A DNA stretch of 64,000 bases from a virus (lineage: Duplodnaviria > Caudoviricetes), in the IMG/VR virus record IMGVR_UViG_3300030330_004154, positions 33,556-97,555 of that record. The stretch is one strand, 5' to 3'. The number at the start of each line of letters is the position of its first letter. Position 1 is the first letter of the stretch. Below are positions 7,087 to 49,780 of this stretch, one piece after another. A program made the position numbers and the translations under genes. The notes beneath the pieces are model-generated. The model did not search any database and was not told the DNA's origin. It saw only the letters and a list, made by a program, of their open reading frames with translations.

Positions 7087-9053
7087 TTATCTAACTCGTA
7101 AGTCCAAGAAATATTAAATGTATAACTTCCGTCTTTTGGGTTCCAGCTTTCTGTGGGCGCATTTATAAAATACTTTCTAATTCCCGGCTCTTTTGCTGGG
7201 CTTAATTCTGCTAACAAATCGGCTATCTGTGTAGCAGTTGGTTCTACGATGCTAGGTTTTTTAAGTAGCAATGGATTTCTTGTTTTCCCGTATGGCAACT
7301 TGGTGTAGTCCACAACCAGACTAATGCTTACATCTCTTTTGTATTCTGTTCTACCGCCAATGTATTGCAGAATAGGTCCAGTTGGACGACCTATAACCGG
7401 AATCACAGCAAATACGTCTCCGGGGTATGTATCGTTTACATTTATTTGTTCAGACAAAACTCCAGATATAATATTTGTAGGTCTATTGTCAAAAGCTAGG
7501 CTGTAAGTTATTTCGCCTGTAAATTCATTAGTCCCTAAAGTTATAGAGTTAGGAGAAGAATTTAACTCAACAGAAACTAAATTGTTTGCTCTTTTATAAA
7601 TATCTGATATAAATCCATACTTGCCAGAGTTAGATATTTGATTATATTTTAACTGTGCATTTTCAAATCCAGTTCTAACGCCGAAGTTTTTAGAATTTGA
7701 ATCATTCCTCTCTTGTATATGATATCCGCTAGGAGTGTACTCGCTAAGACCCCTCACAGAACCATCAATAGAAACGCTAACAAATGGAGTGCTTAGACTT
7801 GAGTTGATAGACGCAGACCAATTTTCAAGCGCATTGCCACTCGCCATAACCCAAGTTTCAGTCGCGGTGTAAGTTCCTCCAGCCATGTCAACACTTTCCG
7901 TTATGACATGATTATATCCTTTGTATGCATTTACAAGCGATACTGTACCTTTTCCAATCTGACCAAATACATTTGGATATGCTCCACTTGCATTTCCATA
8001 ATTTAGCCTTTCTTGAACAAATTTTTTGGCTTGAACCCAAGCGGGCATAGTTCCATCTTCTACTCCCGGTATCAAGTTGCCATTAGAATCTTTATACTGG
8101 TCTGAATTTAAATCAATTCCAGCATTTGGGTCAAAGTAGTGCTTTTTACCCACGGCGCTAATTGTATGACTAATACGGTAAGTTCTAGGCAAGAAAACAT
8201 CTTGGTTAGGATTTACTTGTTTGTCATACCTCTCGGTTTGACCTTCATCAACCTCTAAAGACCAATCTTCACTATAATCTTGAATAAATCTAGCGTTAAA
8301 TTGTTCTATTAATTTCTTTTCTGTAATACCTTGCGCACTATCATAAACATCAAAAATTTCTTTATCAGAAGGTGGGCCGGTCAAGCCGTCTCTCGTTTCA
8401 CCAACTCCAAGTTCTCCACTAGCACCAACTACATATAAACCTTCTACATCTGGTGTTAGATTTGCATCATTATCACCTTTTGGGTAAAGAAGCATGTCGG
8501 CTTCAAGTGAGATAGTGTAACCACAAGTGTTTATATAGATACCTTCTTCAAAATTTATATCAAGAACTCTAGGGTAACAAACTATAACGGCTCTATCACC
8601 ATCAATATCAGATATTTCTAATCGCTGTCCGTCTTGGGCGAACAAACCTCTCAAAACTCTTTGTTTTGATAAAATTGCAGTGGCTCTATCTCTAAGATGA
8701 ACCTGCTGCTCTGGCGGCCTACTGTCCACCATTCCGTCACTTGGAAGATTTGTAGAGCGGTGGCTAACATCCGTGTCAAACTGACCATATGGCCCCTTTT
8801 TGTTTGGTTCAGTTACCCCGCTGGTAAATTCTATTCTGTTCCCAAAGGCGTTGCCTAGTGAAGCCACATTATCTACGGTATAAGGAGATCCTTCATCTGC
8901 CAGTATAGTTCCAGTTAGATTTATAGAGTAATTAACACCAAACGGATCTCCAGCCGCATTTTTCAACACATTAGTACTAATAGACACAAACGGGGTTGGT
9001 CTAATTGTACACTCTTGCGCTGGATCGTTCTTGTATCTTATTCTAATCGGCAT
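7083..9053 (-). CDS. putative tail/baseplate structural protein (656 aa)
   Basis: Beta-strand-like patterns (YSINLTGTI, YTISLEA, YTFNISWTY); position in the tail-tip cluster. Confidence 0.5.
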   Translation of the reverse strand: MPIRIRYKNDPAQECTIRPTPFVSISTNVLKNAAGDPFGVNYSINLTGTILADEGSPYTVDNVASLGNAFGNRIEFTSGVTEPNKKGPYGQFDTDVSHRSTNLPSDGMVDSRPPEQQVHLRDRATAILSKQRVLRGLFAQDGQRLEISDIDGDRAVIVCYPRVLDINFEEGIYINTCGYTISLEADMLLYPKGDNDANLTPDVEGLYVVGASGELGVGETRDGLTGPPSDKEIFDVYDSAQGITEKKLIEQFNARFIQDYSEDWSLEVDEGQTERYDKQVNPNQDVFLPRTYRISHTISAVGKKHYFDPNAGIDLNSDQYKDSNGNLIPGVEDGTMPAWVQAKKFVQERLNYGNASGAYPNVFGQIGKGTVSLVNAYKGYNHVITESVDMAGGTYTATETWVMASGNALENWSASINSSLSTPFVSVSIDGSVRGLSEYTPSGYHIQERNDSNSKNFGVRTGFENAQLKYNQISNSGKYGFISDIYKRANNLVSVELNSSPNSITLGTNEFTGEITYSLAFDNRPTNIISGVLSEQINVNDTYPGDVFAVIPVIGRPTGPILQYIGGRTEYKRDVSISLVVDYTKLPYGKTRNPLLLKKPSIVEPTATQIADLLAELSPAKEPGIRKYFINAPTESWNPKDGSYTFNISWTYELDK

Positions 9054-12000
9054 TATTTACCCCTAATTCGTAAATCTAACGAAGCGCTATTTACTCCTGA
9101 CACTCCAGATACAAACAAGTCCATTTCACCAGAATTAAAGAACCTGTTTCCAGAAACGTAAAAATCAATGTCTCCACTGGCGTAATCTCTATTTCCAGAA
9201 GTATATAACTCTATATTATTATACACATATCCACCATCTGTGTCTTTTATAAACAATGGCATATCTTGCTGCCCAGATCCCGGAACTGCCTTTATAACCA
9301 TATTAATACTATTATCAATAGGAATTCCACTTATAGGTGTTCCAATGACATATTTTACAAAAGGTCTGTGGATGGTAAACCCTTTTGTGGCTGAATCAAA
9401 TCCAGAACCTTCTAGGTAAATCTCTCCAAATCTGTTTGCAACAACCACTCCAGAAGCTTTATAAGTAATAGGATCTCCAGAAACGGGCTGTTCAACAATC
9501 AAGGATACATTTCTTGAGTTTTCTGGACCAAACACTCTAGCAAATATGTAACCGCTTTCAGTTGGAATAACTGCTGGTTGCTCTCTTAACATTGCGTCGT
9601 AAGTAAATGCCGCTCCAGCGTTTTTCAAAAATCCTGTTGTATGATTGCCACTGGTAGGGTAGTCATGATTGATAGCTCCACCCACCAGCGTGTAGTCACT
9701 ATCTCCACGGAATGACCTGTGCATAGCAACAGACACCCCAAACTTGTCATTCTCAGTTCCAGATGGATCAGACGCAGTAGAAACAAATCTACCTCTGTGT
9801 TGTTGCTTATTTAACTTTTCAGCAAAAACAACCGTTTTAGATCTATCACCAAAATTTGTTAAATCATGCCTGTAGGTATATACGGCGCCATCATTTAGAA
9901 CTGGATTGCCACTTGACTCTGGGTACAAGTGGGCTGGAATGTCAAACTCTGCTGTAAATTCTTTTCTAAGAAACGCTGAAGTGCCATCGTAAACGTGGTT
10001 ATGTTCAGTTATCCAATCGTGATTTGGCGCACCAATAGCAAACATGTCAGAAGCAACAGAAACAGAGCGTCCAAACTGATCTGTCTGCCTAAAGTCTTCG
10101 TCGTTATGATCTTGACTTCTTTCTGTTCCAATATTTTTTTGACTTTTTATATTAGCAGCACTTAACCCGCCACTAACGCCAACGTTTGCGCTTTCTGGTT
10201 TTAGCTTATCTTTATATTCAAACGGAAGGAATTGAGATTTAGCGTTTGTTCCTTGACCAGTTCTTTCAAAGAAGAAAGCAGCACCAGCGCCGCCGTACTC
10301 GCTAATTTTGTAGCCAGACAGATATGGTGCGCCAGAAACTTCCGTCCAATCCCAAACCTTGTTTGGATCAAATGCATTAAAAGGACAACCTACAATTAGT
10401 TTGCTATCACTAAGGTCAACAGAGTATCCAAACAAATCACCGGGAAATCCAGAAAATGTGTCAATGTAATCTAGGTAGTCTCTACCAGTTAATTTCTGTA
10501 ATACAGTAATACCACCCCGTATGCCTTCGTCTTTAGGGTAATAAATTACATTTATTTCTACCTGCTTACCATCTTCAAAAGCAAACCTTGGAATACCAGC
10601 TTCATCTTTTTGTTCATTAGTAAGTGGGCCAAAACCTCGGAATATTCCACTAAATCTTGGGTGTACACCGTAAGTATTTTCTATCAGATTAACAAAACTA
10701 GCTCTCTCAGATTCAATCTGATCAAAGGGAGGATTTTTCTGTCTGTAAACATTTACTGGAGCAAAATCATCTTCATCGCTTCTATAAAGCGCCTGCTTCC
10801 CGGTTTTTGCTGACACTCCCGGTTTTCCAAATCTTCTTGTTAGTCCTTCTTCGTTTACTAGCGAATAGTATTTAGCTGGACTACCCGCTTCTGGACTTCT
10901 AATTTTTTGCACGTATTCAAACTTTGTTCCAGTTTCAAAATACTCTTCATTTTTTTCAAACTTTTGCTCTTGTTGATTTTCTTGCGGGCTTGGCAAATAA
11001 AGACTTCTTAGAAACTTTTGATTGTCACCAACTGCATTGTCTCTATAATGTGGGCATTTGCCCTGAATAATAGTTGGGTCAGAGATAACAACAATTCTAG
11101 ACCTTCTTTTGCCAGCGCTAAATGACGAAAAGTTTTCTAATTCTTCAGCGGCAACGACTGGCCCATCTTCAATTAACTTTTCCGTAGTAATTGTTTCGCA
11201 ATCTACCAACCCCGGTTCTACATAATTTTCACGACTTCTAGATATTGGCTGAAGAACTCCTGATATAACTATTCGCTGCTCAGGAATAACACTAGAAGGA
11301 GTGCAAGTCACTTCCCATCCGTCATGAACATCTATACATGTTTTTGTTGTTACATGTACAGTTTCATAAGGTATTGGGCATCCAGATATAGAAACAATTC
11401 TAACAGATCTAGGCTCGACAAACACACTGTCTGCGTCTATTTTTTCGTGCTTACTAGCGTCAAAAGCTACCGTCAATTCAGTTCCAGATGTACCAACTTG
11501 AATCCTGTAAGACTTTTGCTTGACGTTGCCAATCTCTGTTTTTGTTAAAGAGTCATGAGCAAAGCTGCCATCCTCAATACTATTGTCAGAGATAACAATA
11601 CCAGTATCTATCTTATCATCGTTAGTTTCAGAAACGTAGTTAACAAAGACTTGATATCCAGAGGTATCTACGACCGGGAATGTAACAGAAGCGCTAGCCT
11701 GCATTGTAAAGAACGCTTGGTCAATAAACTTTTTCTTACGTGCAGTTAGTGACTCCTCGTACTTAATTATTCGACCACTTGGCTCGGTGTCAATAACTGG
11801 GACAATATTAAATTCATTTCTTCTAAATGGATCATTTATATCATCGCGGAATGTTGTTAAGTAATTAATGTATGTATAATCTGAAGGATAATTTTTTAAC
11901 CATGAAAATCCTTGAGGGCATCCACTGACTATTTCATAATCATAGTTTATTGTTTGAGGTGTTTGATCTAAAAGCTGTGCGCTTAAATAATCACTAACCA

Positions 12001-15000
12001 ATTCCGAAAAGGCTGGCTTCATATTTAAATCGAGCTTACTACAAATCTTTGTTACATTTTTGATTGTATCAAAAGGTTGAGAAATTATATTGCCAATATT
12101 TCCAAAATTGTCTTCTTCGTAAATTTCTGGTTGAATATTGTATGTTATAACAACGGTTTTGTTGTCATTTACTAAATACTCTTTTATTTTTTGTACACCG
12201 TCTTCATCGTACCCAGTTGGATCTGCAATCCAAAGCACATCAGCAAGAGCGTAATTTTCATGCGCTGTAAAGTTTTGCTCAACAGTATGTTTATGAGAAG
12301 ATAAAAGATTAAATAGGTCAGATCGACTTTCTTCATCTCTATCCATTACATCAAAGTCAGACATTACATCTGCAAAAGATTCTCTGCCAGTCCAACCTCC
12401 AATTTGGTAAACCACACCCGGATTATCACAGTTTCTTTTTACTATACTTGAATAAAACGCAGGGTTCTTGTCATCTTCACCGGCGCTCTTTTCTGGGTCG
12501 TTACCAAGGTTGATACGGTTTTCTGGTCTAGTAGAAGCTATCATTATAACCTTAGAGCCAACACCAGCATAACTAGGAGCTTCTTGACAAACCAATGGGC
12601 TGTCTGGGGATACTATTTCTGTTTCAAATCCATCGTCCATTATCTGGCTGGCAATTTTACCTTTAGCCTGCAAGATTGGATTTCTAAGATTTAATGCCGT
12701 TGGGTTTGTAAATGTATTTAAGTTAAATGCATTGAATGTACCGCTCGGCCCATTTGTTGGCACAAGTGGTTCATAAATGTTAAATGCTATTTGATCTAAA
12801 TGGTCTGTTGCCAATCTTTGAAATGACGAACCAACCTCAAAACACTCTTTTCTAAATAACTCTGAAGATGTGCATACTTCTGGAATTATAATTTCTGGAA
12901 TAATTTTAATTCTATCTGGAGTTTTTCTAGCAGCAGTTAAAATAGGTCTAGGGTCTTGATATGGAGAATCTAAATTTCCGGGAAGTGGATATTGATCACA
13001 AGCCCTACTTGGATTTGGATTATCGAAATACATAGGCCAGTTGGTTTTATACTCTATTTCTGCGCAGCCAAAAGGACCGCAAATAGAGCAGATAGAATTC
13101 CACTGCGCTCTTAAATCGCCAAATTGTTTAAGGGGAAGTTCTGGCTCTGGATTTAAAGGTTTTAAGGGATCGTTACATGGCATTTGCACACCACTACCTT
13201 TGAATACAGAAACCTCGTTGTCTTTAAGTCTTATCTTAATATCACCAACACCTCTAGCATAAATATTGTCAGTACTAATTTTAGATTCGTATTCACTAAA
13301 AGTTGTGTGATTGTATTCAGGTTGAAATGCTTGCACCACATTGAAAGACCCAGATTCAGCACATTCCAAAAGCGCATCTTCTTGATTTCTTGCAGCTTGA
13401 ACTACCATCCTAGAACCAAGCTTTTCAAGTATTGTATTGACAATATCTGTAGACTTTGCGTATGCGCCGCCATCCTCAAACTTAGGGTCGTTAGCAACAA
13501 GCACTAACGTTCTATCGCCAAGAGCTAGCCATTCCTTGATATTGGTAAGTATTTCTTCTCCACCGTCTTGAGAAATAACATCTCTTTCCGGTGTAATAAT
13601 AAAGGCAACTCCAGCGTCTTGAGGTATCTTCTTTTCAGAAAATTCCATCTTCCTGAACGATCTAGGTTTAGTTCCCTCTTCTGCTACATCAACACCAAAG
13701 TAGATACCCATTCTCTCGTAAGAAATAGAGGTATCATTTTGATTAAGGGATCTATCAAGATTTCCAAATCTAGTAAACTCGACAACACCGCTATGAGGGT
13801 GGTATTTTCTTGATTCAAAAAGTCTGACTGCACCAGCATTTGTTATAGAGGGCCAACGATTATTTCCAGAGCCTAAATCTGTTGTTCCGCCATACCAAAC
13901 ATTAAGGTCATCAAACTCATTGAATGAATCTGTTGGCGCACCAAATGCAACTATATTGCCAGTATCGCTAACTGCACAGCTATACCCAAGCCTTGATGTT
14001 GGAGCAAATTCACTAGCTAAAAATCCCCATGTGCCAGTGTAAGGAATGTCTGTGTACTTATAGTCATATATTTTTTTGTAAAGCTCAATAGTATTAGTAG
14101 CGCCCCAGAAACTAACGTCTGTTCTATAGAAGAACTTATCGGATGCATTTAATTCTAAATAAGATTGTGACTGAGCAATACTTTCCCCGGAGTCTGCAAG
14201 TAATTCATCATACCTATCTATATTTGCAGAAAAATCTAATCTAGTGTTGTCTAGACCATTGTAATCATGACGACCGCTAGCATGAACAAACCAGTCTCTA
14301 ATGTTAGAATACATTCTGTCATTTTCAGTTTCAACTCTTTCAAAAACTTCGCAAGGTCTTGGAGTGAAGGGAGATCCAATAGCAATAATCTTACCATCTT
14401 TACTTATATCAACAGCATGACCAAATCTATCGTGATAGTCTTTGCCTAGTTCAAAGTTCAAAAAATCATCATTGCTTTCATCGTCACCAAGAGCTATTGT
14501 AGAAGCCCTTCTATTGAAAGTTTTAATCTCTTGGACTAAGTTTATATCATCGCCCTCTTTGTCGAAAATGTAAACTTTACCCCCAGAAGAAGGTGGTATT
14601 TGAAATGTTCCAAGCGCAGGGTTAGCGTTAACATCAAAACCACTAGCTATGTATCTAAGCGCATCGTTATTTATAAGATTTCCAGTGTCAAGCGTTTCTT
14701 GTAGTAACTGAACAGAAGCGTCAGCCCATTTTTCTGCAACGCCATTTATTCTATTTACATAACCGCTATTGGGGTATGAAGTTTCTGGATCAATAACGCC
14801 ACTTTGATAAGCATAAGATTGATAGAAATTAACAAAGTTTTTGATAGGTTCATTTATGTCGTCGCCACCCAGACTAGACGGGCTTTCATCTGCAAATATA
14901 CCAAGTATGGGCGGCAACCCGCTATGAGGGTTGTCGGAAACTTTAAAGGCATCTAGGAAAAGAGATTTGATATCTTTAGCAATTGACTCCACAGTAACAG

Positions 15001-16105
15001 TTGCGTCTACGTTAGAATTGCTAAGTTTGTCTATATAGGCGAACTTTAAAAAGTCATGTTTAATAAACTTGGGTGGTCTTGGTGTGTCTGGCCCAACAAA
15101 GTTGTATATCAACAATTTAATATCTAGCTTGGGATTAAAATCAAAATCTGGCCTTTCCCATTTTTCTGCAAAGTAAGTGTAAAGAACATCAAACACCTTA
15201 GCTTCGTTAGCAACTCTATTTATAAGATTATCTAAATTTTGAAACTTGTCTGTAAAAACAGCCATGCAAACAGGGATGCCAGAAACATTCAGGTCATCAA
15301 ACTCTCTAGTCCAAGCTGCATGTGGAGCGCCAACAACAACGGTTTCTTTATTACCACTAGAACTTAACGCAACACTATGTCCAAACTCGCGACCTTCTTG
15401 ACCAATATCCCATTGTTGGAAAGGTATAGAAAATTCAGTGTTGGCACTGTTTTGTGGATACTTGATTGCCGTTCCGGGTGTAGAGGCAACGTAGTCTCTA
15501 ATAAATCCACTTGGTAAAACAAGTTTTTGTTCTAAATCCCAACCTGCTTTTCTGCCTGCAACATCTGTGTTTCTTCTGTACAAAAATACAGCGCCGCCAC
15601 TTGGCATACCGCTTCCATACTCATCGTAAATGGTGAGACCCGGAGCGCCTACGGCCATTAGATTTTCACAAACAGATACGGATTTTCCATAGTGTGTACC
15701 TGAATTTCTACAAGTTACATCAAGAACACCGTCTGGATCATAATCGCTTACAAGTTTAATTCCAGAATAATTAAGGGTTTGTTGATTTTGATCTCCAATT
15801 GTTCCCGGCCCACATATACCATACTCCCATTCTTCCCAGTCTCTAGGTTGAGAAATACCATGCGTCTCACCCGTTTCAATAGCCATTGTAACAAAGTAAG
15901 GTTGGTTTGGAACAAGCTTGGTATATTTTCTTATGTCATAGTAATTGCCAGAATAACTACCGGGGGATTCATTAAATGCCTTTTGTACACTTGGGTTAGT
16001 ATATGTAGCAAAAGCTCTAAATATACCACCATCAACACAAACTGCTGGTCTCCAAGTAACATCATCCGTTATTAAGGCTGGGTCGGTTGCCGTTCTATTA
16101 CTCAT
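9053..16105 (-). CDS. giant FG-GAP-repeat (integrin-alpha-like beta-propeller) virion protein, probable adhesin/tail-tip protein
   Basis: Many FG-x-S/AV...xGAP...GAxY/F repeats (FGHSVAL..VVVGAP; FGHAVDI..IAIGSP; FGYSVDL..IVGCP; FGRSVSV..AIGAP). C-terminal SG-x-DLFVSG repeats. Likely start is ATG 16105, overlapping the upstream stop; the track uses 16138. Confidence 0.7.
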   Translation of the reverse strand: MSNRTATDPALITDDVTWRPAVCVDGGIFRAFATYTNPSVQKAFNESPGSYSGNYYDIRKYTKLVPNQPYFVTMAIETGETHGISQPRDWEEWEYGICGPGTIGDQNQQTLNYSGIKLVSDYDPDGVLDVTCRNSGTHYGKSVSVCENLMAVGAPGLTIYDEYGSGMPSGGAVFLYRRNTDVAGRKAGWDLEQKLVLPSGFIRDYVASTPGTAIKYPQNSANTEFSIPFQQWDIGQEGREFGHSVALSSSGNKETVVVGAPHAAWTREFDDLNVSGIPVCMAVFTDKFQNLDNLINRVANEAKVFDVLYTYFAEKWERPDFDFNPKLDIKLLIYNFVGPDTPRPPKFIKHDFLKFAYIDKLSNSNVDATVTVESIAKDIKSLFLDAFKVSDNPHSGLPPILGIFADESPSSLGGDDINEPIKNFVNFYQSYAYQSGVIDPETSYPNSGYVNRINGVAEKWADASVQLLQETLDTGNLINNDALRYIASGFDVNANPALGTFQIPPSSGGKVYIFDKEGDDINLVQEIKTFNRRASTIALGDDESNDDFLNFELGKDYHDRFGHAVDISKDGKIIAIGSPFTPRPCEVFERVETENDRMYSNIRDWFVHASGRHDYNGLDNTRLDFSANIDRYDELLADSGESIAQSQSYLELNASDKFFYRTDVSFWGATNTIELYKKIYDYKYTDIPYTGTWGFLASEFAPTSRLGYSCAVSDTGNIVAFGAPTDSFNEFDDLNVWYGGTTDLGSGNNRWPSITNAGAVRLFESRKYHPHSGVVEFTRFGNLDRSLNQNDTSISYERMGIYFGVDVAEEGTKPRSFRKMEFSEKKIPQDAGVAFIITPERDVISQDGGEEILTNIKEWLALGDRTLVLVANDPKFEDGGAYAKSTDIVNTILEKLGSRMVVQAARNQEDALLECAESGSFNVVQAFQPEYNHTTFSEYESKISTDNIYARGVGDIKIRLKDNEVSVFKGSGVQMPCNDPLKPLNPEPELPLKQFGDLRAQWNSICSICGPFGCAEIEYKTNWPMYFDNPNPSRACDQYPLPGNLDSPYQDPRPILTAARKTPDRIKIIPEIIIPEVCTSSELFRKECFEVGSSFQRLATDHLDQIAFNIYEPLVPTNGPSGTFNAFNLNTFTNPTALNLRNPILQAKGKIASQIMDDGFETEIVSPDSPLVCQEAPSYAGVGSKVIMIASTRPENRINLGNDPEKSAGEDDKNPAFYSSIVKRNCDNPGVVYQIGGWTGRESFADVMSDFDVMDRDEESRSDLFNLLSSHKHTVEQNFTAHENYALADVLWIADPTGYDEDGVQKIKEYLVNDNKTVVITYNIQPEIYEEDNFGNIGNIISQPFDTIKNVTKICSKLDLNMKPAFSELVSDYLSAQLLDQTPQTINYDYEIVSGCPQGFSWLKNYPSDYTYINYLTTFRDDINDPFRRNEFNIVPVIDTEPSGRIIKYEESLTARKKKFIDQAFFTMQASASVTFPVVDTSGYQVFVNYVSETNDDKIDTGIVISDNSIEDGSFAHDSLTKTEIGNVKQKSYRIQVGTSGTELTVAFDASKHEKIDADSVFVEPRSVRIVSISGCPIPYETVHVTTKTCIDVHDGWEVTCTPSSVIPEQRIVISGVLQPISRSRENYVEPGLVDCETITTEKLIEDGPVVAAEELENFSSFSAGKRRSRIVVISDPTIIQGKCPHYRDNAVGDNQKFLRSLYLPSPQENQQEQKFEKNEEYFETGTKFEYVQKIRSPEAGSPAKYYSLVNEEGLTRRFGKPGVSAKTGKQALYRSDEDDFAPVNVYRQKNPPFDQIESERASFVNLIENTYGVHPRFSGIFRGFGPLTNEQKDEAGIPRFAFEDGKQVEINVIYYPKDEGIRGGITVLQKLTGRDYLDYIDTFSGFPGDLFGYSVDLSDSKLIVGCPFNAFDPNKVWDWTEVSGAPYLSGYKISEYGGAGAAFFFERTGQGTNAKSQFLPFEYKDKLKPESANVGVSGGLSAANIKSQKNIGTERSQDHNDEDFRQTDQFGRSVSVASDMFAIGAPNHDWITEHNHVYDGTSAFLRKEFTAEFDIPAHLYPESSGNPVLNDGAVYTYRHDLTNFGDRSKTVVFAEKLNKQQHRGRFVSTASDPSGTENDKFGVSVAMHRSFRGDSDYTLVGGAINHDYPTSGNHTTGFLKNAGAAFTYDAMLREQPAVIPTESGYIFARVFGPENSRNVSLIVEQPVSGDPITYKASGVVVANRFGEIYLEGSGFDSATKGFTIHRPFVKYVIGTPISGIPIDNSINMVIKAVPGSGQQDMPLFIKDTDGGYVYNNIELYTSGNRDYASGDIDFYVSGNRFFNSGEMDLFVSGVSGVNSASLDLRIRGK

Positions 16106-39005: not shown

Positions 39006-39796
39006 GTCTCCCTCCAGAATGGTCTGAACATTTCTTGGTGGTCTATTTCGGGCTGTGGAAAATATTCGTAATTACCCTGAGCTATTCTTTCTAAAAGATC
39101 TATCCTGTAGTGAATTGGCCTGCAACCATTTACGTGTACAAAATAAGCGTCTTCAATCTTAGACCAGAACTCAAAGTCTATAAACTCTAGGTTGTATCTC
39201 CAATTAACTAATTCAAAGTCGTCTTCATTTAGGTTCAGGATAAGATAATCCTGATCAAAGCACCATAATTTATAGTAGGGTTTTTCTGGTTGTGAGTATT
39301 TATCAGCAAACTTTTTAGGGAAAAACATCATACCATTGTTTGGCTGAATATTTCTATTGTTTTTACATAAGTGTGGATAGTCTTCTAAAATTAAAAACCT
39401 TTCATAACAAAAGGATTTAAATAAAGTATTATGGTAGGAATTCTTTAATATTTGAAATTCATCTACTAAGGATATTTTATCTTTATTGAATATATCAAAC
39501 ACATTTGGTGAATCCTCTTTAACTACAATATCACAATCTAAGTACAGGGTGTGTTCATATTTTTCGATTACTTGTTTTAATCTATACTTATTAGACATAG
39601 GCCAGCCTGAAGACAGATCTCCATTTAGCTCAACGTAGTCAGCACCACAAGAGTTAGCATAGTTTAATATACTTGGTCTCGTTACATCAAGCTGCTTTGC
39701 GGCGACATCATTAGCTGGAATTACACAAACAGCAATGTCTGAATTTTGACGAGGTAAAGTATCATCAAATTGTATAACAGGCGTTAGCGGCTTCAT
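38999..39796 (-). CDS. GT-A fold glycosyltransferase (GT8/GT34-like)
   Basis: YANSCGADY, LYLDCDIVV (DxD), NNGMMFF, DQDYL, YFVHVNG. Confidence 0.75.
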   Translation of the reverse strand: MKPLTPVIQFDDTLPRQNSDIAVCVIPANDVAAKQLDVTRPSILNYANSCGADYVELNGDLSSGWPMSNKYRLKQVIEKYEHTLYLDCDIVVKEDSPNVFDIFNKDKISLVDEFQILKNSYHNTLFKSFCYERFLILEDYPHLCKNNRNIQPNNGMMFFPKKFADKYSQPEKPYYKLWCFDQDYLILNLNEDDFELVNWRYNLEFIDFEFWSKIEDAYFVHVNGCRPIHYRIDLLERIAQGNYEYFPQPEIDHQEMFRPFWRETC

Positions 39797-40832: not shown

Positions 40833-41240
40833 CTATATAAAAACGTTAAAGGCTTCCCCTAGAACCATTACCACTTTGTGGTCTGCAATTTGAGGCGAAC
40901 CAGAACTCCCTCCTCCTCGATATAGGTCGGCAGGAGAATCGTCTCCTAATCCTGCCGTATCGTAAATGTATTTCAAAGTCATTTCAGGTTGATCCCCAAA
41001 CTCTCCGGTTTCACCGATTGCTGTTATCAAGTAAACATACGTAGACGCAACAGTGCTACTAGTTCCCGCTCCCGCAGTTCTTTTTTCCACGTATGCAAAT
41101 TGACCAACCTTTGCTGCGCTTATGTCTTGACCCGAATCGTATGCTATTACATAGTTAGGGCCAGAACCCGTAACGGAACCCTCATTGTATGCTTCTACTG
41201 TAGCTATAATTACAACGTGGTTTCTTAAATTCCTAGCCAT
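40833..41240 (-). CDS. hypothetical protein (135 aa)
   Basis: Start overlaps the upstream stop (TAATG). Confidence 0.65.
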   Translation of the reverse strand: MARNLRNHVVIIATVEAYNEGSVTGSGPNYVIAYDSGQDISAAKVGQFAYVEKRTAGAGTSSTVASTYVYLITAIGETGEFGDQPEMTLKYIYDTAGLGDDSPADLYRGGGSSGSPQIADHKVVMVLGEAFNVFI

Positions 41241-43993
41241 TATTTAATATCCTGACCAATAATAAACGCCATAACATTTGTTACAGTGCTTTCAAATATA
41301 AATCCATAAACATCAACGGCATTGTTTGATTCTGTCAAGGTAGGCACAATACCTCCAGCCCACTTAATAGTGGCATTACCACCGTTAACATCTACATCAT
41401 TAAATCCTTCACTAGAGTTCAAGTCAATATGCGAACTATGTTGTTTGAATCTAACTATAACTCTCTGACCGGCGGTTACATTTGTGAAGTTAATTCTTGT
41501 GGCATCTGCGTTCATAAGTATTTCATGATAGTTTGCAGCACTGCAATCAATATCTACAATACCACCATCGGTAGCAGTGTTTGGAGCTTGGTTGATAGAA
41601 CCTCCAGCGGTTATCTTGCCGGTAGTTGTTATACTATCAATGTAGGCATCTTTCCAACGAACACTGGTAGTACCTAAGTCAACATCACTATCTGCTTCTG
41701 GACCAAACACGTTATCAACCAAACTAACTTGGTTAACATTATTTGCTCTAAGTATAATCTTATTATCTGTTGTAGCAAAGTCAACTAGGTTTTGAGAGTC
41801 TCTACCTATTTTTAAGTCTGTTGCAAAGGTATCGCCCGAAACATCGCCCCCACCTCCGGTCAAACCAGAAACAACAACAATATCATCGGCATTAGTATCT
41901 ACTCTTGATTCAAAATATCCTGAGTTCGCAGTGATACTGCTATCTGCTGAGTCAACTCTAGACTCAAAGTATCCTGAGTTCGCAGTGATACTGCTATCTG
42001 CGGAATCTACTCTTGATTCAAAGTATCCTGAGTTCGCAGTGATACTGGAAGAGTTAGTTGATATATTCGTATCAGCAGCATCTACTCTAGATTCAAAATA
42101 ACCAGAGTTGGCCGTAATACTAGAATCTGCTGAGTCAACCCTAGATTCAAAGTATCCAGAATTTGCAGTGATACTGGAAGAGTTAGTTGATATATTCGTA
42201 TCAGCAGCATCTACTCTTGATTCAAAGTATCCTGAAATTGGAGCGTCGTCATAGCTGCTACCGCCACCCCCTCCGGTTGTGATAGTTACTTGCCCATTGC
42301 TATTATCTGTAAGAGTGCCGTTGCTAACAACAATTGTTCTAACGTTGCTTACATTTGGACTTCCATCTGCCTCTTTAACAGTTATACCAGAAATAGTCAC
42401 GATGTCGGCGGCGTTTACGTCTACTCTTGACTCAAAGTATCCTGAGTTGGCAGTGATACTGCTATCTGCCGAATCTACTCTTGACTCAAAGTATCCTGAA
42501 TTGGCAGCAATGCTAGAATCGGCAGAGTCTACTCTTGACTCAAAGTATCCTGAATTGGCAGCAATGCTAGAGTCGGCAGAGTCTACTCTTGACTCAAAGT
42601 ATCCTGAGTTCGCAGTGATACTGGAAGAATTTGTTGATATGCTAGAGTCCGCAGCGTCTATTCTAGATTCAAAATACCCTGAACTTGCAGTTACGCTAGA
42701 ATCTGCCGAATCCACTCTAGACTCAAAGTATCCTGAGTTGGCAGTAATACTGGAAGAATTACTTGAAATATTAGAATCTGACGAATCTACGCGAGACTCA
42801 AAATAACCAGAAAGTGAGGCGTCATTGTATAAAAGGCCAGAAACAACAACAATATCCGCAGTATTAGTATCTGCTCGCGATTCAAAATATCCAGAATTTG
42901 CAGTGACGCTGCTATCTGCTGAATCTACGCGAGATTCAAAATACCCAGACAAAGAAGAATCGTTATATAATAATCCAGATACAATTGCTATATCTGTTTT
43001 GTTTTGCGCAGCTATTCCTGAAGTAACAACACCACTAGCAGAGTTTGCTCTTATCTCTTGCAAATAATAATCACCAGAAGAAAAAGGTAATCCACCACCA
43101 CCGCCAGCGCTGGTTTGGACACTACCATCTGAAAATCTAATGGCATTAAACCTACCGCTTGGAGAAATAACATTTCCAGAAGTTTCAAAATCTCCATGTT
43201 GATTTATACTTGCTTTTTCATCAGTTGCCACACTCCAAGTTTGCAGATCGGCAGCGTGACTTACGCTAGACTCAATAGCAAAAACAGTATGTGCTACAGA
43301 AGTATTTTTGGCGGTAGTTGTTTCATCTGAAGATAAATCTAGGTTTTGAATAGCAATTTCACCGCCATTTTTGCGGATATCAATAATATTTTTAAGTTGG
43401 TGGCTTATTTGCAGTCCTTCAGAGTTTCCATCTCCAATACTTAGAATGGAAGAAGAGCTACCTCTAAGTTCAACAAAACCCTCTTTACCAGTAACCAATG
43501 CATAATACGGAGCAACAATTTCAGATTGAGTTGTTTTGAGTCCAAGCTTCCAAACTGGATCTGTTCCTTCTTCAATAAAAAAAGAAACAACTCTATTTGT
43601 GTGATCTGTAGACAAAGCCTGCCAGTAATCACCATCATCAGATCTTTTAAACGCAAAAGGTGTGGGGAAAATTACCGCATCGCTTTCATCTTTAAATATA
43701 AGTCTATCAGCAGGTACAACGCAAAAAACAATTGCTGTGCCAGATATACTTATTTTATTATCGCTATTAGAACTTTGAAATATAGTATCTCTACTTAGCG
43801 TATTAGATGAATATGTACCAATACCAATTTCAAAATTAGCTTCATTTTGTATACAATAATAAGTGGTGTTACCTTCACCAATGGCATCGGAAAATGACTG
43901 GAAACCACCAAACGTAGCGCCACTAAGCGTAATCGCTCCAGTACCCTCAGTTATAGTGGTTTCTTTTACTCTGTCTGCTATTATTAAAGCCAT
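41240..43993 (-). CDS. long fibre protein with DRVKETT N-terminal domain and coiled-coil SGYFESR repeats (917 aa)
   Basis: 15 SGYFESR repeats; DLGTTSVRWKDAY knob motif; C-terminal IKWAGGIVPTLT...VDVYGF tip module. Confidence 0.75.
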   Translation of the reverse strand: MALIIADRVKETTITEGTGAITLSGATFGGFQSFSDAIGEGNTTYYCIQNEANFEIGIGTYSSNTLSRDTIFQSSNSDNKISISGTAIVFCVVPADRLIFKDESDAVIFPTPFAFKRSDDGDYWQALSTDHTNRVVSFFIEEGTDPVWKLGLKTTQSEIVAPYYALVTGKEGFVELRGSSSSILSIGDGNSEGLQISHQLKNIIDIRKNGGEIAIQNLDLSSDETTTAKNTSVAHTVFAIESSVSHAADLQTWSVATDEKASINQHGDFETSGNVISPSGRFNAIRFSDGSVQTSAGGGGGLPFSSGDYYLQEIRANSASGVVTSGIAAQNKTDIAIVSGLLYNDSSLSGYFESRVDSADSSVTANSGYFESRADTNTADIVVVSGLLYNDASLSGYFESRVDSSDSNISSNSSSITANSGYFESRVDSADSSVTASSGYFESRIDAADSSISTNSSSITANSGYFESRVDSADSSIAANSGYFESRVDSADSSIAANSGYFESRVDSADSSITANSGYFESRVDVNAADIVTISGITVKEADGSPNVSNVRTIVVSNGTLTDNSNGQVTITTGGGGGSSYDDAPISGYFESRVDAADTNISTNSSSITANSGYFESRVDSADSSITANSGYFESRVDAADTNISTNSSSITANSGYFESRVDSADSSITANSGYFESRVDSADSSITANSGYFESRVDTNADDIVVVSGLTGGGGDVSGDTFATDLKIGRDSQNLVDFATTDNKIILRANNVNQVSLVDNVFGPEADSDVDLGTTSVRWKDAYIDSITTTGKITAGGSINQAPNTATDGGIVDIDCSAANYHEILMNADATRINFTNVTAGQRVIVRFKQHSSHIDLNSSEGFNDVDVNGGNATIKWAGGIVPTLTESNNAVDVYGFIFESTVTNVMAFIIGQDIK
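41880..42960 (-). repeat. coding tandem repeats, mostly 54-nt and 75-nt units, in two blocks (6 and 9 copies)
   Basis: SITANSGYFESRVDSADS (18 aa) and a 25-aa variant; synonymous codon variation between copies; boundaries approximate. Confidence 0.9.
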
Positions 43994-44058: not shown

Positions 44059-46659
44059 TTATAGGCCGCCAGTTGGGTCATCGTCAGGAACGTCAGGATT
44101 ATCAGGGTCTTCAGGGTCTGGCTCTGGTGGATCACCATCACCATCATCTTCGCAACAGAAGCAGGATGACTGTCCTGCACCAGTAACTGTCCAAGTGGGA
44201 GGTGCGCTACAGCTACCAAGAACGGTTGGGTCATCAGCCCCTGCGGGGGCGTTTATGTTGATGTTGCAACTACTAAAGGTTCCTGACCATCTGTCTGTAT
44301 CAGTTGCAGCTTTGCTAGAATCGCAAGTTATTGATGTAGTCCAACTGTCGCCACAAGGAAAAGTTCCAGCGTCAGTGTAACTATATATGCCATTGCAGCC
44401 GCCATCATAATTTGATATTGTATCCGAAGCAGTGTCAGTAGCGCTAAATGAACAATCGCCACCGATTGAACTCATGAAAACGGGCCACGATAATGATTGT
44501 GGACAAGGACAAGGGCAAGATGTTGTTGTGGTTGTTGGGGCAGAAGTTGTGGTTGGACCCTGAGTCGTTGTTGTAGTTGGACCCTGTGTGCTTGTTGTAG
44601 TTGGACCCTGTGTGCTAGTTGTGGTCGGACCTTGAGTTGTTGTTGTAGTTGGACCCTGAGTCGTTGTGGTGGTTGGGCAAGGATTTGATGAACAACTTAC
44701 TCCCGGATGATGAATAAATTCCATATCAAAAATACCGGGAGGAGGACATTGACTAGCAGCTACATTGTCTTGACAATTAAATGTCGGCTCGGTCAAAAGC
44801 CTTGAACAGCAAGCGCCTAATGGACCCGACGTTGTTGTAGTTGTTGCACATGCACATTCTTCGCAAGTCATAGATTCTAATGTTGGTTCTAATTCTGCAC
44901 ATGTCTTGTTACTAAATAAATAGGCTAGGTATCCACCCAGTCCTAAGTCTTTATGATATTCAAACGCTTGTTCAAAGCTAGAAAAGTCAGTACAATCTCT
45001 AGGTGGGCGACGATATATTCTACCTTGAGGGTCGTCTTGGCAGCAGTTATCGCCCACGACTGTAAAAGCAGGGTCGTCACAACAGTCTGGTTTTTTACCT
45101 AAACATGCAACTACAGCTGTAGGTTCTGGCGCTAATGTTGTTGTAGTCGTTGTTGTTGGACCTTCTGTGGTAGTAGTGGTTGGTATGCACTCAGTATTAA
45201 AGGTTATGCTGACATCTGAACAATTCGGCTGTAAAACACTTCTGTCTGGGCAACAAGGACCGAATGTATCTGCGCACTGACCAATTTGTGGATCTCCACC
45301 GTTAGTCGAATTCCATTCTTGTTGTACTATTTGAGACGAAGGACAATCACACGTACATCCAACTACATTCTCTTCAGGAAAAGTCCTACCCCATTTGGTC
45401 TTCCAGAATTTTTGACCGTTTTCTTCAACGTATTCAAACCTACAGCCAATACTGACTGGCGGACATGGGTCTTGCGTTGTAGTTGTAGTTACTGGAGGTG
45501 GTGGTGGAGGTGGTGGATCACAATTAAATCCCGGCATGTCAAAACGACATCCCGGAAAATTATCAGAAAAGAAACCAGCAGTACAATCGAGGAAATTTTG
45601 ATCAAAGGTTGGAGTGCTTTTTTCAAAAAAGAACCGACTTTCACCTGCAAGTTCAAAGTATCCATAACTTGAACTAGATGTTCCTACACTCGCAAAATTA
45701 TGTAAAGAAAAACAAGTGTCGATTGGAAAAGAACTAACGTCAAATTCGTATTCCGCACTCATTGATTTAGTAAGGCTGTCACAACACGCCATTGGCAAAT
45801 CGCCATAACAGTGCGCTGAACTATCATTAAAATATGACATTAAGTGTGCAACATTTTCAATGACAGTACCATTGCCCCCTCTTGCAGTAGAGTCTGCTGG
45901 GTCTTTACACACAGAGAGGAATTTACTGTTGTGTTCAGACGCGCTTGTAAATGGTCCTACATATTTTGCTGGAACCATTTGATTATTTGCCGTAAGAACA
46001 GAAGTTAAATAAGCAGTATCGCCATATCTTTGAAATGTGCCTATTTTTAAATGAAATTTGTCAAGTTTTGTGGTAGTTGAGCCTGCAACAGTATTCTTAA
46101 ATTTTATTGTTGCACATCCATATTTAGGATCTCGACGTTTGTCGCAAAGTCCAATGTACTCTATATCTACAATACTATCATTTTGTATATATGGAAATTC
46201 ATTGTTAACAAATTCAAGTCTTGCATTAACACCCAACCCGCCCACGCTAACTGGAGCAATTCCAGACAGCCAACCATGAGTTCCAGTACCTTTGTAATCG
46301 CGAGGAACATGACCTTGCTTAAATTGCGAAAGAGACGTAGGGATACGCTCTAGATCAAGAGGTTTTTCTGGGTGATAAGACCCACTAGCAAAAACATTGG
46401 AGTCGCCTTGAACGGGACCGCTTTTCGTTAAGAAAAACGATTCACACGGAGAGGATTCAAAATCATCGTCACACTTGCCACAGAAACTACCGGGAAAATC
46501 ACTGCACGACCCCGGCATGTGAATGCCACTTACACCAGAACACTGAACTGATGTGAGCGATTCTGTACAAACAGTACCTCCAGACTCGTCGCAATAAATG
46601 CAAACAAACCCAGAAGGTAGATTAAAATCACAACAGTTACAGTTTCTAGGTTTGCCCAT
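44059..46659 (-). CDS. Cys-rich protein with Thr/Pro mucin-like tracts (866 aa)
   Basis: Dozens of Cys in small modules; poly-Pro; several poly-Thr tracts; PTTT(T/S)TQG repeats; acidic PD/PE tail; no signal peptide. Confidence 0.8.
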   Translation of the reverse strand: MGKPRNCNCCDFNLPSGFVCIYCDESGGTVCTESLTSVQCSGVSGIHMPGSCSDFPGSFCGKCDDDFESSPCESFFLTKSGPVQGDSNVFASGSYHPEKPLDLERIPTSLSQFKQGHVPRDYKGTGTHGWLSGIAPVSVGGLGVNARLEFVNNEFPYIQNDSIVDIEYIGLCDKRRDPKYGCATIKFKNTVAGSTTTKLDKFHLKIGTFQRYGDTAYLTSVLTANNQMVPAKYVGPFTSASEHNSKFLSVCKDPADSTARGGNGTVIENVAHLMSYFNDSSAHCYGDLPMACCDSLTKSMSAEYEFDVSSFPIDTCFSLHNFASVGTSSSSYGYFELAGESRFFFEKSTPTFDQNFLDCTAGFFSDNFPGCRFDMPGFNCDPPPPPPPPVTTTTTQDPCPPVSIGCRFEYVEENGQKFWKTKWGRTFPEENVVGCTCDCPSSQIVQQEWNSTNGGDPQIGQCADTFGPCCPDRSVLQPNCSDVSITFNTECIPTTTTTEGPTTTTTTTLAPEPTAVVACLGKKPDCCDDPAFTVVGDNCCQDDPQGRIYRRPPRDCTDFSSFEQAFEYHKDLGLGGYLAYLFSNKTCAELEPTLESMTCEECACATTTTTSGPLGACCSRLLTEPTFNCQDNVAASQCPPPGIFDMEFIHHPGVSCSSNPCPTTTTTQGPTTTTTQGPTTTSTQGPTTTSTQGPTTTTTQGPTTTSAPTTTTTSCPCPCPQSLSWPVFMSSIGGDCSFSATDTASDTISNYDGGCNGIYSYTDAGTFPCGDSWTTSITCDSSKAATDTDRWSGTFSSCNININAPAGADDPTVLGSCSAPPTWTVTGAGQSSCFCCEDDGDGDPPEPDPEDPDNPDVPDDDPTGGL
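44520..44680 (-). repeat. 24-nt coding tandem repeat (PTTT[T/S]TQG) x5
   Basis: Visible in both DNA and translation; boundaries approximate. Confidence 0.9.
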
Positions 46660-46660
46660 T

Positions 46661-47710
46661 TTAGCTTCCGTATATTGACCTTGCTTCTGCTAGAAATTCA
46701 TTAAATTTATTTTCATCGAATTTAGCATTTTCTACAAACTCTTTATGAACAGGATGTAAATCCATATTAAGTTCAGTAAACTCTAGTATGTAGTTTCTAA
46801 CTTTATTTTCGATAGTTAATTCATATTTAACGCCGTCTGGTCTAGCAAATCTGTGCAACCACTTTAAAAATGGTAGGCATAGCGCTTTCCTTCCAGCTTT
46901 TCTGTACTTTTCATGTATATAACACTCTTCGCCGCCAAATCCTCTACAGTGTTCATTAAACCCAAGCCAAGATCTTTTGGAAGTAAAAAACAAGCCAAGT
47001 CCTTGTGCAAAAATTTCAAACTCATTTTCATCTGGATCAAACCCAAGCCTTGTAAAACCAAGCTTTTCAAGTATACTTTCATGACCCGGAAAAGCTAATT
47101 CTTGCGGAAAAAGAGTGTAGCAATGGTCACAATACTGCATGTGATTCTGATTTTCTAAATCTACTATTTTACAAATGTTGTCTTCATTAATAACGCTAAA
47201 GTTTTTCTGTTTGCATTTGCAAGTCCAAGCGCTACCCCACCTTCCCCACATTTGACCTCCCCACTCATCATTAAAATGTGTAGAGATCATTGTTAAGTTA
47301 TCATAGACAAGTGGACCTTGATACAAATGCATTGTATTTGGGTATTTATCTATAAACTGAAATAATTTCTCTAGGGTTTGTACAACTGGGCATAGCAATA
47401 CATGACAATCCATAACAAGTACAAAATCAGTTCTTGCTTCTTCAATGATCTTGTTTCTTGTGGAAGATGTACCTTGAGAGTCTGGGAAGTCTATGACTCT
47501 AAATCTATCGCCAAGGCCAGTACCGCCCTGAAGGTTTTTGACAGCTTGAGCATGTGCGTTTTCTTTTGCGTTTTCAATAATTACAAATTCAAGTCTATTT
47601 AATAAGTCCTCCCTTTTATTAAATCTTAATTCTTTTATGATATCCTGAATACTAAAGTAAGCGCCATGAAAGTCCGAGTGATGCGCCATTCCTATGGTTA
47701 TTTTCCTCAT
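46661..47710 (-). CDS. GT2-like glycosyltransferase with Cys-rich insertion
   Basis: ITIGM...EFVIIEN...GTSSTRN...VLVMDCHV...GFNEHCRGFGGEE; internal CKC...CDHC. Confidence 0.8.
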   Translation of the reverse strand: MRKITIGMAHHSDFHGAYFSIQDIIKELRFNKREDLLNRLEFVIIENAKENAHAQAVKNLQGGTGLGDRFRVIDFPDSQGTSSTRNKIIEEARTDFVLVMDCHVLLCPVVQTLEKLFQFIDKYPNTMHLYQGPLVYDNLTMISTHFNDEWGGQMWGRWGSAWTCKCKQKNFSVINEDNICKIVDLENQNHMQYCDHCYTLFPQELAFPGHESILEKLGFTRLGFDPDENEFEIFAQGLGLFFTSKRSWLGFNEHCRGFGGEECYIHEKYRKAGRKALCLPFLKWLHRFARPDGVKYELTIENKVRNYILEFTELNMDLHPVHKEFVENAKFDENKFNEFLAEARSIYGS

Positions 47711-47749
47711 TTATTTTCCTTATATAATTATTGTATAAATTCCTTGCTG

Positions 47750-49303
47750 TTATGTTTGGCTAAGTTTTGTGTAAGATCCAGTATTGCAGTTATATCTTAT
47801 ATTTATCGTTGAACCATTAACCGGAGATCCACTGTAGAGAGCGCCAGCAGTAACGGCGTCCAAGTCTACGCACTGAGTTGAGCTATGTGGAGAACATGAT
47901 GCCGAACTTGGATTCATACTCCAGCTTCCAAAGTTGTAAGTCGCAGAACAATCTAAAGTAGTATCTGGAACGACGGTTGTGGTTGTAGTTGGACCTTGAG
48001 TAGTAGTTGTAGTTGGTCCTTGGGTAGTTGTTGTAGTTGGAGTCTGCGTAGTGGTAGTCGTTGGGCCTTGAGTTGTAGTAGTCGTTGGACCTTGCGTAGT
48101 GCTAGTTGTTGTTGTAGTCGGACCTTGGGTTGTTGTTGTAGTCGGACCTTGGGTTGTTGTTGGAAGAGGTATAGCAGCGCAACTAGACCAAATAGGTCGC
48201 CATTCACCATTTTGCATTGCAAACTGAGAGTAAGTACCACTTGCTATTTCTAAATTAGTATCTCTATTAATTGCATAATACAAATCTCCATCTTCGCAAA
48301 CGCCTCCGCAGGTTCTTTTTTCTCTCCATAATCCAGATGTTGGACTACAGAAGTCAGTTGGGGCAGCAAGATCTTCCTCAAAGAAGCCTTCATTAAACCT
48401 TACCCCAGAACCAGAACCGCAAACAGTATCGCCATGTACTGTTAAATCCCCATAAACTTGAACATCTCTAAAGAAACCGTCCCACCTAAGATCAGTTGAC
48501 CCAAGAGCAAGCCCATCATAACATGGTATAATACGTGATGTTGACTTAACAGTATCAGACGTTGGAAATTGAAGTTGACCATTTACAGATCTCCAAGCCC
48601 TATTATCGTTACCAAGGTCAAAAGTTCTAGTTACAGTTGGAGAAGCATCTCCAGAAACCTGAAGTGTTCCATAGTTATGTAATTCATTAGTACCAACAGC
48701 AAGTTTTAATTCTTGCAAATCTCCGCGAAGCAGAGGAGTTCCAGAGCCATCAAGACAACAAGACCCAGAGGCTTCTGAGTGAGCGCCAAGATAAAATTGA
48801 TAACTGTCTGATTTACCTATATAATAGCCAGCGCCATGACCAATAGCTATATTGAAATCGCCATTTCTAAGACCATAAAGAGTTTTTAAACCAACCCCTA
48901 CATTTCCGTCTCCTTCTACAGAGCCAACTAAAGAATTGCAACCAATGGCTGTGTTATAATTTCCATCTAAATTACAACTAAGAGAATAAGAGCCAGCGGC
49001 AGTATTTTCTTTTCCGAATACATTACCGCCTAATGAGGAATAACCGACCGCAGTATTGTCAACTCCGCTTTCGTAAGTAAGATCTAAATTATCTAAGGCT
49101 AGTTCCCCAACCTTTGTTTGTCTTAGGTGGGCAGATTCTATATTTAATGCTTTTATACTATGTAGCTCAAGAAACCTATGGGTAGAGTCCACAGCATTTG
49201 TGAAAACATCTCTAACATCTTTAGGAGATATTTGTTCTGTGCTATTGTCTGGTAAAAAATTGTTTAGAGATAGTATAAAATCATTTTCTGAGAACTCTGC
49301 CAT
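47750..49303 (-). CDS. fibre/spike-like protein with beta-solenoid repeats and mucin-like Thr-rich stalk (517 aa)
   Basis: 14-aa NTAVGYSSL-type repeats; DLGNDNRAW and LGSTDLRW knob motifs; PTTTTTQG repeats; Cys-containing C-terminal domain. Confidence 0.75.
   Translation of the reverse strand: MAEFSENDFILSLNNFLPDNSTEQISPKDVRDVFTNAVDSTHRFLELHSIKALNIESAHLRQTKVGELALDNLDLTYESGVDNTAVGYSSLGGNVFGKENTAAGSYSLSCNLDGNYNTAIGCNSLVGSVEGDGNVGVGLKTLYGLRNGDFNIAIGHGAGYYIGKSDSYQFYLGAHSEASGSCCLDGSGTPLLRGDLQELKLAVGTNELHNYGTLQVSGDASPTVTRTFDLGNDNRAWRSVNGQLQFPTSDTVKSTSRIIPCYDGLALGSTDLRWDGFFRDVQVYGDLTVHGDTVCGSGSGVRFNEGFFEEDLAAPTDFCSPTSGLWREKRTCGGVCEDGDLYYAINRDTNLEIASGTYSQFAMQNGEWRPIWSSCAAIPLPTTTQGPTTTTTQGPTTTTTSTTQGPTTTTTQGPTTTTTQTPTTTTTQGPTTTTTQGPTTTTTVVPDTTLDCSATYNFGSWSMNPSSASCSPHSSTQCVDLDAVTAGALYSGSPVNGSTINIRYNCNTGSYTKLSQT
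47960..48165 (-). repeat. 24-nt coding tandem repeat (PTTTTTQG), ~7 copies
   Basis: Same unit as in the 866-aa protein; boundaries approximate. Confidence 0.9.
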
Positions 49304-49312
49304 GACCCTACC

Positions 49313-49780
49313 TTAGCTGAATTTAATTTTAAGATTTGTTACATCAAACTTTACAGCATCGCCTTTAAAGACAATTCTTGGGTTGGTTAGTTGAGAGTGC
49401 ATCAAAAGATTTCCAGATCCATATCCAGAGTGATCAGTTATTGCTATTCCAGATACAAAACCCCAGTCTAATAAAGCCTTTTCAAAAACTATTGAACCAG
49501 AGTTCTTGATTACTCCACTTCCGTAGTCTCCAGATTCTTGCTCAAAAATCCAAGCGGTTCTGCCTGCTGTAGAAGGGTCTCCAAGCGAAATCCTAGAATA
49601 ACCAGTTCCACTACCGTTAATTCCACTTGGTAGTTCAGGAATTGTTCCGCCAGTATCAGAATCTATGGGAACGCCACTACAGAGCGCAATAGCTATTTCG
49701 TCTGGTTTTATAAAAACCTGACCTTTAAATACGTGATGTAATAAACCAGACTCAAGATAGTCCGACAAAGCAGTACTCAT
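49313..49780 (-). CDS. conserved phage structural protein (155 aa)
   Basis: LSDYLE..LLHHV...GYSR...N...IVF..A..DWG.V....I.D....GNLL pattern common in phage head/neck regions. Confidence 0.6.
   Translation of the reverse strand: MSTALSDYLESGLLHHVFKGQVFIKPDEIAIALCSGVPIDSDTGGTIPELPSGINGSGTGYSRISLGDPSTAGRTAWIFEQESGDYGSGVIKNSGSIVFEKALLDWGFVSGIAITDHSGYGSGNLLMHSQLTNPRIVFKGDAVKFDVTNLKIKFS

Follow-up and report, generated by a model that had tools for sequence, protein, structure and literature searches.

A serine-specific excess of Ser-Gly dipeptides in outward-facing virion proteins of an uncultured marine phage lineage

Phage-encoded glycosyltransferases O-glycosylate the virions of the mycobacteriophages Che8, Corndog and Myrna, as reported by Freeman et al. 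2023 (cited in PMC12363180). A second described system comprises TibC and AAH, which in the cytoplasm attach O-linked heptoses to Ser rather than Thr in numerous recurring loops of the β-rich surface proteins TibA and AIDA-I; the mapped AIDA-I sites include Ser-313 in an NSGG motif (QNSGGAV), and a second one reads TSAA, so that Ser-Gly is no strict sequon there (PMC4358343). Here, we analyzed the Ser-Gly (SG) dipeptides in the proteins of an uncultured marine phage, the window being the whole stretch of 64,000 nucleotides that corresponds to bases 33556–97555 of a 97,555-bp IMG/VR record. The record is ~59% complete as estimated by CheckV, with complete relatives spanning 163–174 kb, so that additional genes for virion proteins or glycans may be located beyond it. 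Every window gene treated here is encoded on the minus strand. We observed an SG excess that is real, present at the protein level and specific for Ser, that is limited to a subset of the outward-facing proteins, and that is conserved across the lineage.

The expected dipeptide counts were calculated for each protein from its own composition, and z-scores were derived from shuffled sequences. For the 30 proteins of the tail/fibre module, 254 SG were counted against 127 expected (z of 11.3), making SG the top outlier among the 400 dipeptides, whereas the reversed Gly-Ser (GS) dipeptide was not enriched, with an observed/expected ratio (O/E) of 0.95. Six proteins exhibited SG O/E values in the range of 2.1–3.9, corresponding to shuffle z-scores of 8.5 (2361 aa), 8.1 (1748 aa), 5.5 (385 aa), 5.5 (155 aa), 4.9 (917 aa) and 3.8 (326 aa), and in these proteins 25–48% of all Gly residues follow a Ser. 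Among the pairs ending in Gly, SG alone is raised in this set (2.82), whereas NG (0.54), DG (0.86), TG (0.87), AG (0.80) and PG (0.85) are not. All six Ser codons as well as all four Gly codons contribute to the SG pairs, which places the bias at the level of the protein and rules out a DNA-level motif as its source.

The dipeptide is typically preceded by P, A or V and followed by Y, I or V, with E, K and R being depleted, yielding a hydrophobic, strand-like environment. The first-pass annotation had pointed to the Ser-Gly attachment site of proteoglycans, and the dipeptide itself is indeed what the two systems share. The likeness does not extend further, as the flanks are hydrophobic and not acidic, no GT14 match (Branch, PF02485) was found in the ~59% complete fragment, and the modification would take place in the cytoplasm and not in the Golgi. 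A eukaryotic proteoglycan-type sequon is thus rejected on the basis of the flanks together with the GT14 test of the fragment.

The excess was absent from the enzymes and from the internal virion proteins. The 34 early proteins of the plus strand showed an SG O/E of 0.81, and the tape measure protein (21353–27958; 2201 aa), which contains 11.5% Gly, an O/E of 1.06. Likewise, no excess was detected in the region 49892..57013 for the major capsid protein (MCP; 49892–50899), the cement protein, a 486-aa protein, the portal (52952–54985) and the large terminase subunit TerL (55022–57013), where MCP and TerL contain 3 SG each. These values reproduce the hand counts of the first-pass annotation for the 385-aa fibre (15 SG, 2 GS), the 155-aa protein (10 SG) and TerL, correct its MCP count of 2, and, on per-protein dipeptide statistics, bear out its distinction between SG-rich outer proteins and the enzymes and internal proteins.

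The two proteins with the largest SG counts are giants encoded downstream of the tape measure gene. The giant distal tail protein (9053..16138; 2361 aa), which contains an FG-GAP repeat, carries 46 SG and 13 GS, against 14.9 SG expected, spread along the protein; removal of a C-terminal SGxxDLY/F array (~9056–9199) left the O/E at 2.85. In the second giant tail protein (16098..21344; 1748 aa), we counted 45 SG and 19 GS, against 16.0 SG expected, and the O/E was 2.39 without an array of the eight-residue unit SGxLDLYx (~16755–17042), in which a spacing of 8 occurs six times. The arrays of the giants, and that of the 917-aa fibre described below, had been pointed out before and were confirmed. 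As an observation in its own right, both giants end in such C-terminal eight-residue SGxLDLYx arrays, which may form a β-helical needle or a docking array.

The smaller SG-rich proteins are encoded further upstream. The 385-aa fibre (34154..35311) contains 15 SG against 4.6 expected and is non-repetitive at these sites, and the adjacent 326-aa tail-fibre-like protein (35316..36296; phrog_11355) contains 9 SG (O/E 3.0). A small structural protein of 103 aa (36838..37149) has 3 SG (O/E 4.3), all in a hydrophobic-SG-hydrophobic context. Directly after the MCP gene, a 155-aa fibre or decoration protein of the Gp80 family (49313..49780), to which we refer as the head fibre, carries 10 SG against 2.6 expected, with 48% of its Gly residues preceded by Ser. 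Finally, 19 of the 27 SG of the 917-aa fibre (41240..43993) lie inside an array of the 18-residue repeat SGYFESRVD (~41864–42979). Outside this array the SG O/E was 1.44 and not significant, showing that the repeats account fully for the excess of this protein.

The vanishing of the 917-aa fibre excess upon removal of the array is what would be expected if the signal arose artificially from composition, from internal repeats or from a motif in the DNA, and composition had also been named in the first-pass annotation as a possible refutation. This concern holds for that array only. Elsewhere, the excess persisted over per-protein expectations with shuffle z-scores of 5–8, the giants and the 385-aa fibre are non-repetitive at their SG sites, every Ser and Gly codon is used, and GS is not enriched. 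Composition or repeats alone are thus ruled out for all but the 917-aa fibre by per-protein expectation, shuffling and array removal, and the artefact explanation, largely refuted, appears highly improbable to us.

To compare these values with other phages, we used 496 proteins (≥200 aa) taken at random from IMG/VR, which yielded O/E values of 1.20 for SG, 1.21 for TG, 1.05 for NG and 1.06 for GS. The 99th percentile of the per-protein z was 3.3, as determined on the first 345 of these 496 proteins, compared with 8.1, 7.3, 4.9, 4.7, 3.9 and 3.5 for this phage. The SG O/E ranged from 0.3 to 1.96 for gp34–37 of T4 and J, stf and H of lambda, and from 0.5 to 2.2 for the tail proteins of Methylophilales phage Venkman and Psychrobacillus phage PVJ1, with the exception of Venkman gp58. 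The latter shares the N-terminal domain of the fibre and contains 6 SG and 1 GS, although no GT1 or GT2 glycosyltransferase gene was found in the Venkman genome, indicating that SG-rich domains exist without those transferases.

Within the lineage the pattern is retained. At 80 related loci, the SG O/E was 3.33 for the head-fibre orthologues, 0.63 for MCP and 0.41 for the portal. The protein encoded after the head fibre in relatives, which corresponds to a 517-aa protein of this phage, reaches up to 74 SG versus 12 GS, with 20 SG expected. One such relative of 1312 aa (locus L007, 5760–9698) carries 71 SG spaced 7, 11 and 15 residues apart, periodicities reminiscent of a coiled coil; a sequence search of the PDB yielded no relative of it. 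In the family of the 385-aa fibre, an SG O/E of 2.7–3.1 is kept down to ≤42% identity, and nine of the 15 SG sites are invariant among 42 full-length homologues; the most distant members of this family still belong to the same phage lineage (MCP 81% identical). At the variable SG sites, Ser to Thr is the commonest replacement, and at site 142 of the 385-aa fibre the orthologues switch among NG, DG and SG.

The Gp80 family allowed us to compare one fold inside and outside the lineage. At the positions of the SG dipeptides of the 155-aa protein, GP4 gp80 (PDB 8jou) contains RG, TG, VG, AA and GG, keeping 1 SG, and the PVJ1 homologue likewise has 1. Among the family representatives the mean SG number was 5.9 at ≥46% identity and 3.0 at <40% identity, with some members having 0, as compared to 5–10 in this lineage, where changes such as ENA to ESG are found. 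The Gp80 fold thus does not need SG, and the lineage would have gained it, which favours some lineage-specific selection. PVJ1 gave no GT1 or GT2 match, and the comparison with GP4 covers its gp80 sequence alone. The genomic position of the Gp80-family gene also varies, as it follows MCP here and baseplate J in the myophage PVJ1 (locus L202, 18263–18649), suggesting that the module is used at different places of the virion.

Site 142 touches upon a further explanation, in which exposed turns retain SG for some other reason, be it another modification, an interaction with a chaperone or ligand, or the stability, chemical or proteolytic, of virions that persist for long in the sea, for instance through avoidance of deamidation-prone Asn-Gly. 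The alternation of NG, DG and SG at this site would fit, as would the low NG values of the virion proteins (0.53–0.78, versus 0.99 in the early enzymes), a depletion that could reflect avoidance of deamidation-prone sites. However, the NG deficit amounts to ~15 pairs compared with ~98 surplus SG pairs, most pairs ending in Gly drop to ~0.8 as mere compensation for this surplus, NG is equally low in the internal proteins devoid of an SG excess, and an enzyme that would modify Ser in another way was not identified. Replacement of Asn-Gly by SG therefore accounts for a small part only, and we regard this family of explanations as rather improbable.

We further mapped the SG sites of two proteins onto AlphaFold2 monomer models of moderate confidence, with a predicted local distance difference test score (pLDDT) of 67 for the 385-aa fibre, whose N- and C-terminal domains are confident, and of 65 for the 155-aa protein. 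In the fibre model, SG starts four-residue hairpin loops at 125 (SGAQ) and 366 (SGDS), precedes strands by 1–2 residues at 41 and 142, lies within strands at 58 and 381, and marks a helix C-terminal end at 349. In the 155-aa model, the SG at 11 ends helix 4–12, those at 35, 52, 94 and 122 flank strands, the latter three being located 1–2 residues ahead of them, and the SG at 110 is found within a strand. This mapping, which the first-pass annotation had proposed, thus gave a divided picture, with many sites at turns, junctions and helix ends and several within long strands, where they resemble bulges, amid hydrophobic flanks. In the fibrous parts, SG recurs with periods of 8 (arrays of the giants), 18 (917-aa fibre) and 7, 11 and 15 (relatives of the 517-aa protein). 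Sequence and fold searches of the PDB with the fibres returned no informative fold, the sole weak match being that of the N-terminal domain to a GP4 portal-tail chain.

Based on the conserved positions, the hydrophobic flanks, the periodicity, the Venkman domain and the synteny of a GT2 gene with poly-Thr proteins outlined below, we tentatively favour a structural role, in which SG would be a selected punctuation of the β-rich and fibrous outer proteins of this lineage. Gly would provide the chain reversal or the helix stop, and Ser would be the residue that the lineage strongly prefers ahead of that Gly, probably kept for local capping or packing and not as a modification site; the glycan machinery would then have its main substrates in the 517-aa and 866-aa proteins, namely in their poly-Thr tracts. 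Such a role resembles the known Gly-based chain-reversal and repeat motifs, comprising β-turns, bulges and Schellman-type C-caps, in its placement at loop–strand junctions and helix C-terminal ends. The triple β-helix of T4 gp5 is built of VxGxxxxx octads, and the arrays of the giants likewise repeat exactly every eight residues and keep Gly at a constant position of the unit. In contrast to these motifs, the bias seen here is confined to this lineage and leaves NG, DG and PG unenriched. To our knowledge, Ser does not stand out ahead of Gly in turn statistics.

Several observations weigh against this structural interpretation. A generic turn preference should raise NG, DG, PG and TG as well, which are found at 0.54–0.87; a generic β-turn preference is therefore insufficient. 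The Gp80 fold dispenses with SG in GP4 and PVJ1, with 1 each, and in the members with none, and its rise to 5–10 in the lineage looks like a directional gain. If SG were a structural habit and nothing else, one would not expect an excess that extends over unrelated folds and yet is missing from the internal proteins of the virion. Moreover, Ser to Thr is the commonest exchange at the variable sites, and both models are monomers of moderate pLDDT. The hypothesis of a modification site is kept alive by the Ser specificity, by the gain of SG in a fold that is itself conserved, and by the confinement of the excess to outward-facing proteins of unrelated folds.

According to that hypothesis, the Ser residues of SG at protruding turns would be putative O-glycan acceptors of a cytoplasmic transferase of the phage itself, giving the virion a sugar coat, so that turn position and acceptor role would coincide. 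The specificity for Ser over TG, NG and DG, the limitation to outward-facing proteins of unrelated folds and the gain in Gp80 relative to GP4 and to PVJ1, which lacks GT1 and GT2 matches, are in line with it, and the heptosylation of Ser but not Thr by TibC and AAH is a precedent.

The gene content also supports this possibility. The fragment encodes at least nine transferases together with sugar-nucleotide enzymes, and part of this set is located among the late genes. Its plus-strand arm contains three GT1-fold enzymes, a GT2, a GT11, an FkbM methyltransferase, a DegT aminotransferase, an RmlA-like nucleotidyltransferase, dehydratases, epimerases, a CapD-like enzyme and a carbamoyltransferase. 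Amid the fibre genes lie four enzyme-like genes (37708..40824), encoding a pyruvyl transferase (37708–38451; PF04230), a sulfotransferase-like and a GT8-like protein, both weak matches, and a 343-aa protein without an assigned function. A GT2-family glycosyltransferase (46661..47710) is encoded between two poly-Thr proteins, a place conserved in relatives. Two further genes belong to the late/packaging operon, namely Gmd (58383–59453; 375 bits) and a GT6-family transferase (60176–60934). Four GT1 and two GT2 genes are kept in the complete relatives, and among all sufficiently complete relatives, each of which carries GT1 and GT2 genes, none of this lineage was found to lack transferases. The presence of glycan genes in the fragment, the structural module, the packaging operon and the relatives makes virion glycosylation in this lineage plausible by analogy with the mycobacteriophages.

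As far as these mycobacteriophages are described in the citing article, the two cases share glycosyltransferase genes within or next to a tailed-phage structural operon and outward-facing virion proteins as the presumed targets. They differ in the transferase families and in the far larger toolkit of this phage, with at least nine transferases, Gmd, RmlA/B-like enzymes, a DegT aminotransferase and a carbamoyltransferase. Moreover, virion glycosylation is here predicted from gene content, the candidate acceptors being poly-Thr tracts and, speculatively, SG turns. The comparison with TibC and AAH rests on the SG O/E of 2.82 versus 0.87 for TG, although exchange of Ser for Thr does occur in the orthologues; the systems differ in that the evidence here is drawn from sequence and that no GT9/BAHT heptosyltransferase (PF01075) matched in the fragment. 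A BAHT homologue as the SG modifier was therefore discarded for the fragment.

The GT2 of the structural module points to a different target. It is flanked by a 517-aa virion protein (47750..49303) with mucin-like PTTTTTQGP tracts (~47990–48163) and by an 866-aa poly-Thr protein (44059..46659) with tracts at ~45115–45183 and ~44506–44676. Neither of them shows a significant SG excess (O/E 1.63 with 9 SG and 11 GS, and O/E 1.19, respectively), suggesting a mucin-like acceptor candidate separate from the SG signal. A second lineage of 66–70 kb, for which neither an MCP homologue nor GT1 genes were found, encodes homologues of this GT2 that are 33–42% identical and part of a 672-aa fusion. There, the gene immediately upstream of GT2 has 6–21 poly-Thr tracts in 10 of the 14 loci, while in the lineage studied here a gene flanking GT2 has at least three in ~20 of 30 loci, as compared to none of the 496 random viral proteins with at least three tracts. 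The GT2 neighbours of the second lineage exhibited an SG O/E of 1.11, and 56 proteins of at least 400 aa one of 1.13.

The GT2 and the poly-Thr protein are thus likely a dedicated pair for Thr O-glycosylation in two lineages with unrelated capsids, and the sugar-adding enzymes of the phage appear to have a more obvious target in the poly-Thr tracts than in SG. Of the proposal made in the first-pass annotation, that unrelated surface proteins had been selected to show SG as a transferase acceptor, the exterior location, the different folds, the many transferases and the gain in Gp80 were thus substantiated, but no tie of SG to a transferase emerged. In the co-travel test, which covered the GT2 family, GT2 went along with poly-Thr and not with SG, so the expected tracking of the bias with a particular glycosyltransferase turned out negative for the structural-module GT2.

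Besides this association, the SG-rich fibre N-domain of Venkman without GT1 or GT2, the several SG inside strands with hydrophobic flanks, the lack of BAHT/GT9 and GT14 genes in the fragment and the very heavy load of ~150 sites over six proteins argue against SG as an acceptor, which we therefore consider possible but unlikely. In its fullest form, a Ser-specific phage transferase would O-glycosylate the SG turns of head fibres, tail fibres and giants, adding to poly-Thr glycans and resulting in two sugar coats, a scenario to which we likewise give only limited credence.

The outcome matters beyond this phage, since the lineage is abundant in the sea, with an MCP at least 80% identical being encoded on more than 600 IMG/VR contigs, and its glycan toolkit is among the largest seen in a tailed phage. 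If the Ser residues of SG were acceptors, a two-residue sequon would predict glycosylated virion surfaces of uncultured phages from sequence alone, with a bearing on host recognition, particle stickiness, and the grazing or decay of particles. If SG is structural, as we tentatively prefer, it would be a cautionary case of a strong Ser-specific dipeptide signal without any modification, and a poly-Thr tract adjoining a GT2 gene would be the better marker of virion glycosylation.

Cultured homologues sought for the MCP, the giants, the GT2 and a GT4 were either missing, as for the MCP, or uninformative fragments. The structural genes of the window also include a tube-like protein (30288–31547). 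In the late/packaging operon, a 202-aa open reading frame without a family match (59575–60183) was found, and Gmd and GT6 are located between a sigma-factor gene and the ERCC4, ClpP-like and TerL genes. The gene of the ClpP-family protease (57010–57624) lies directly upstream of TerL, an unusual site for a candidate prohead protease.

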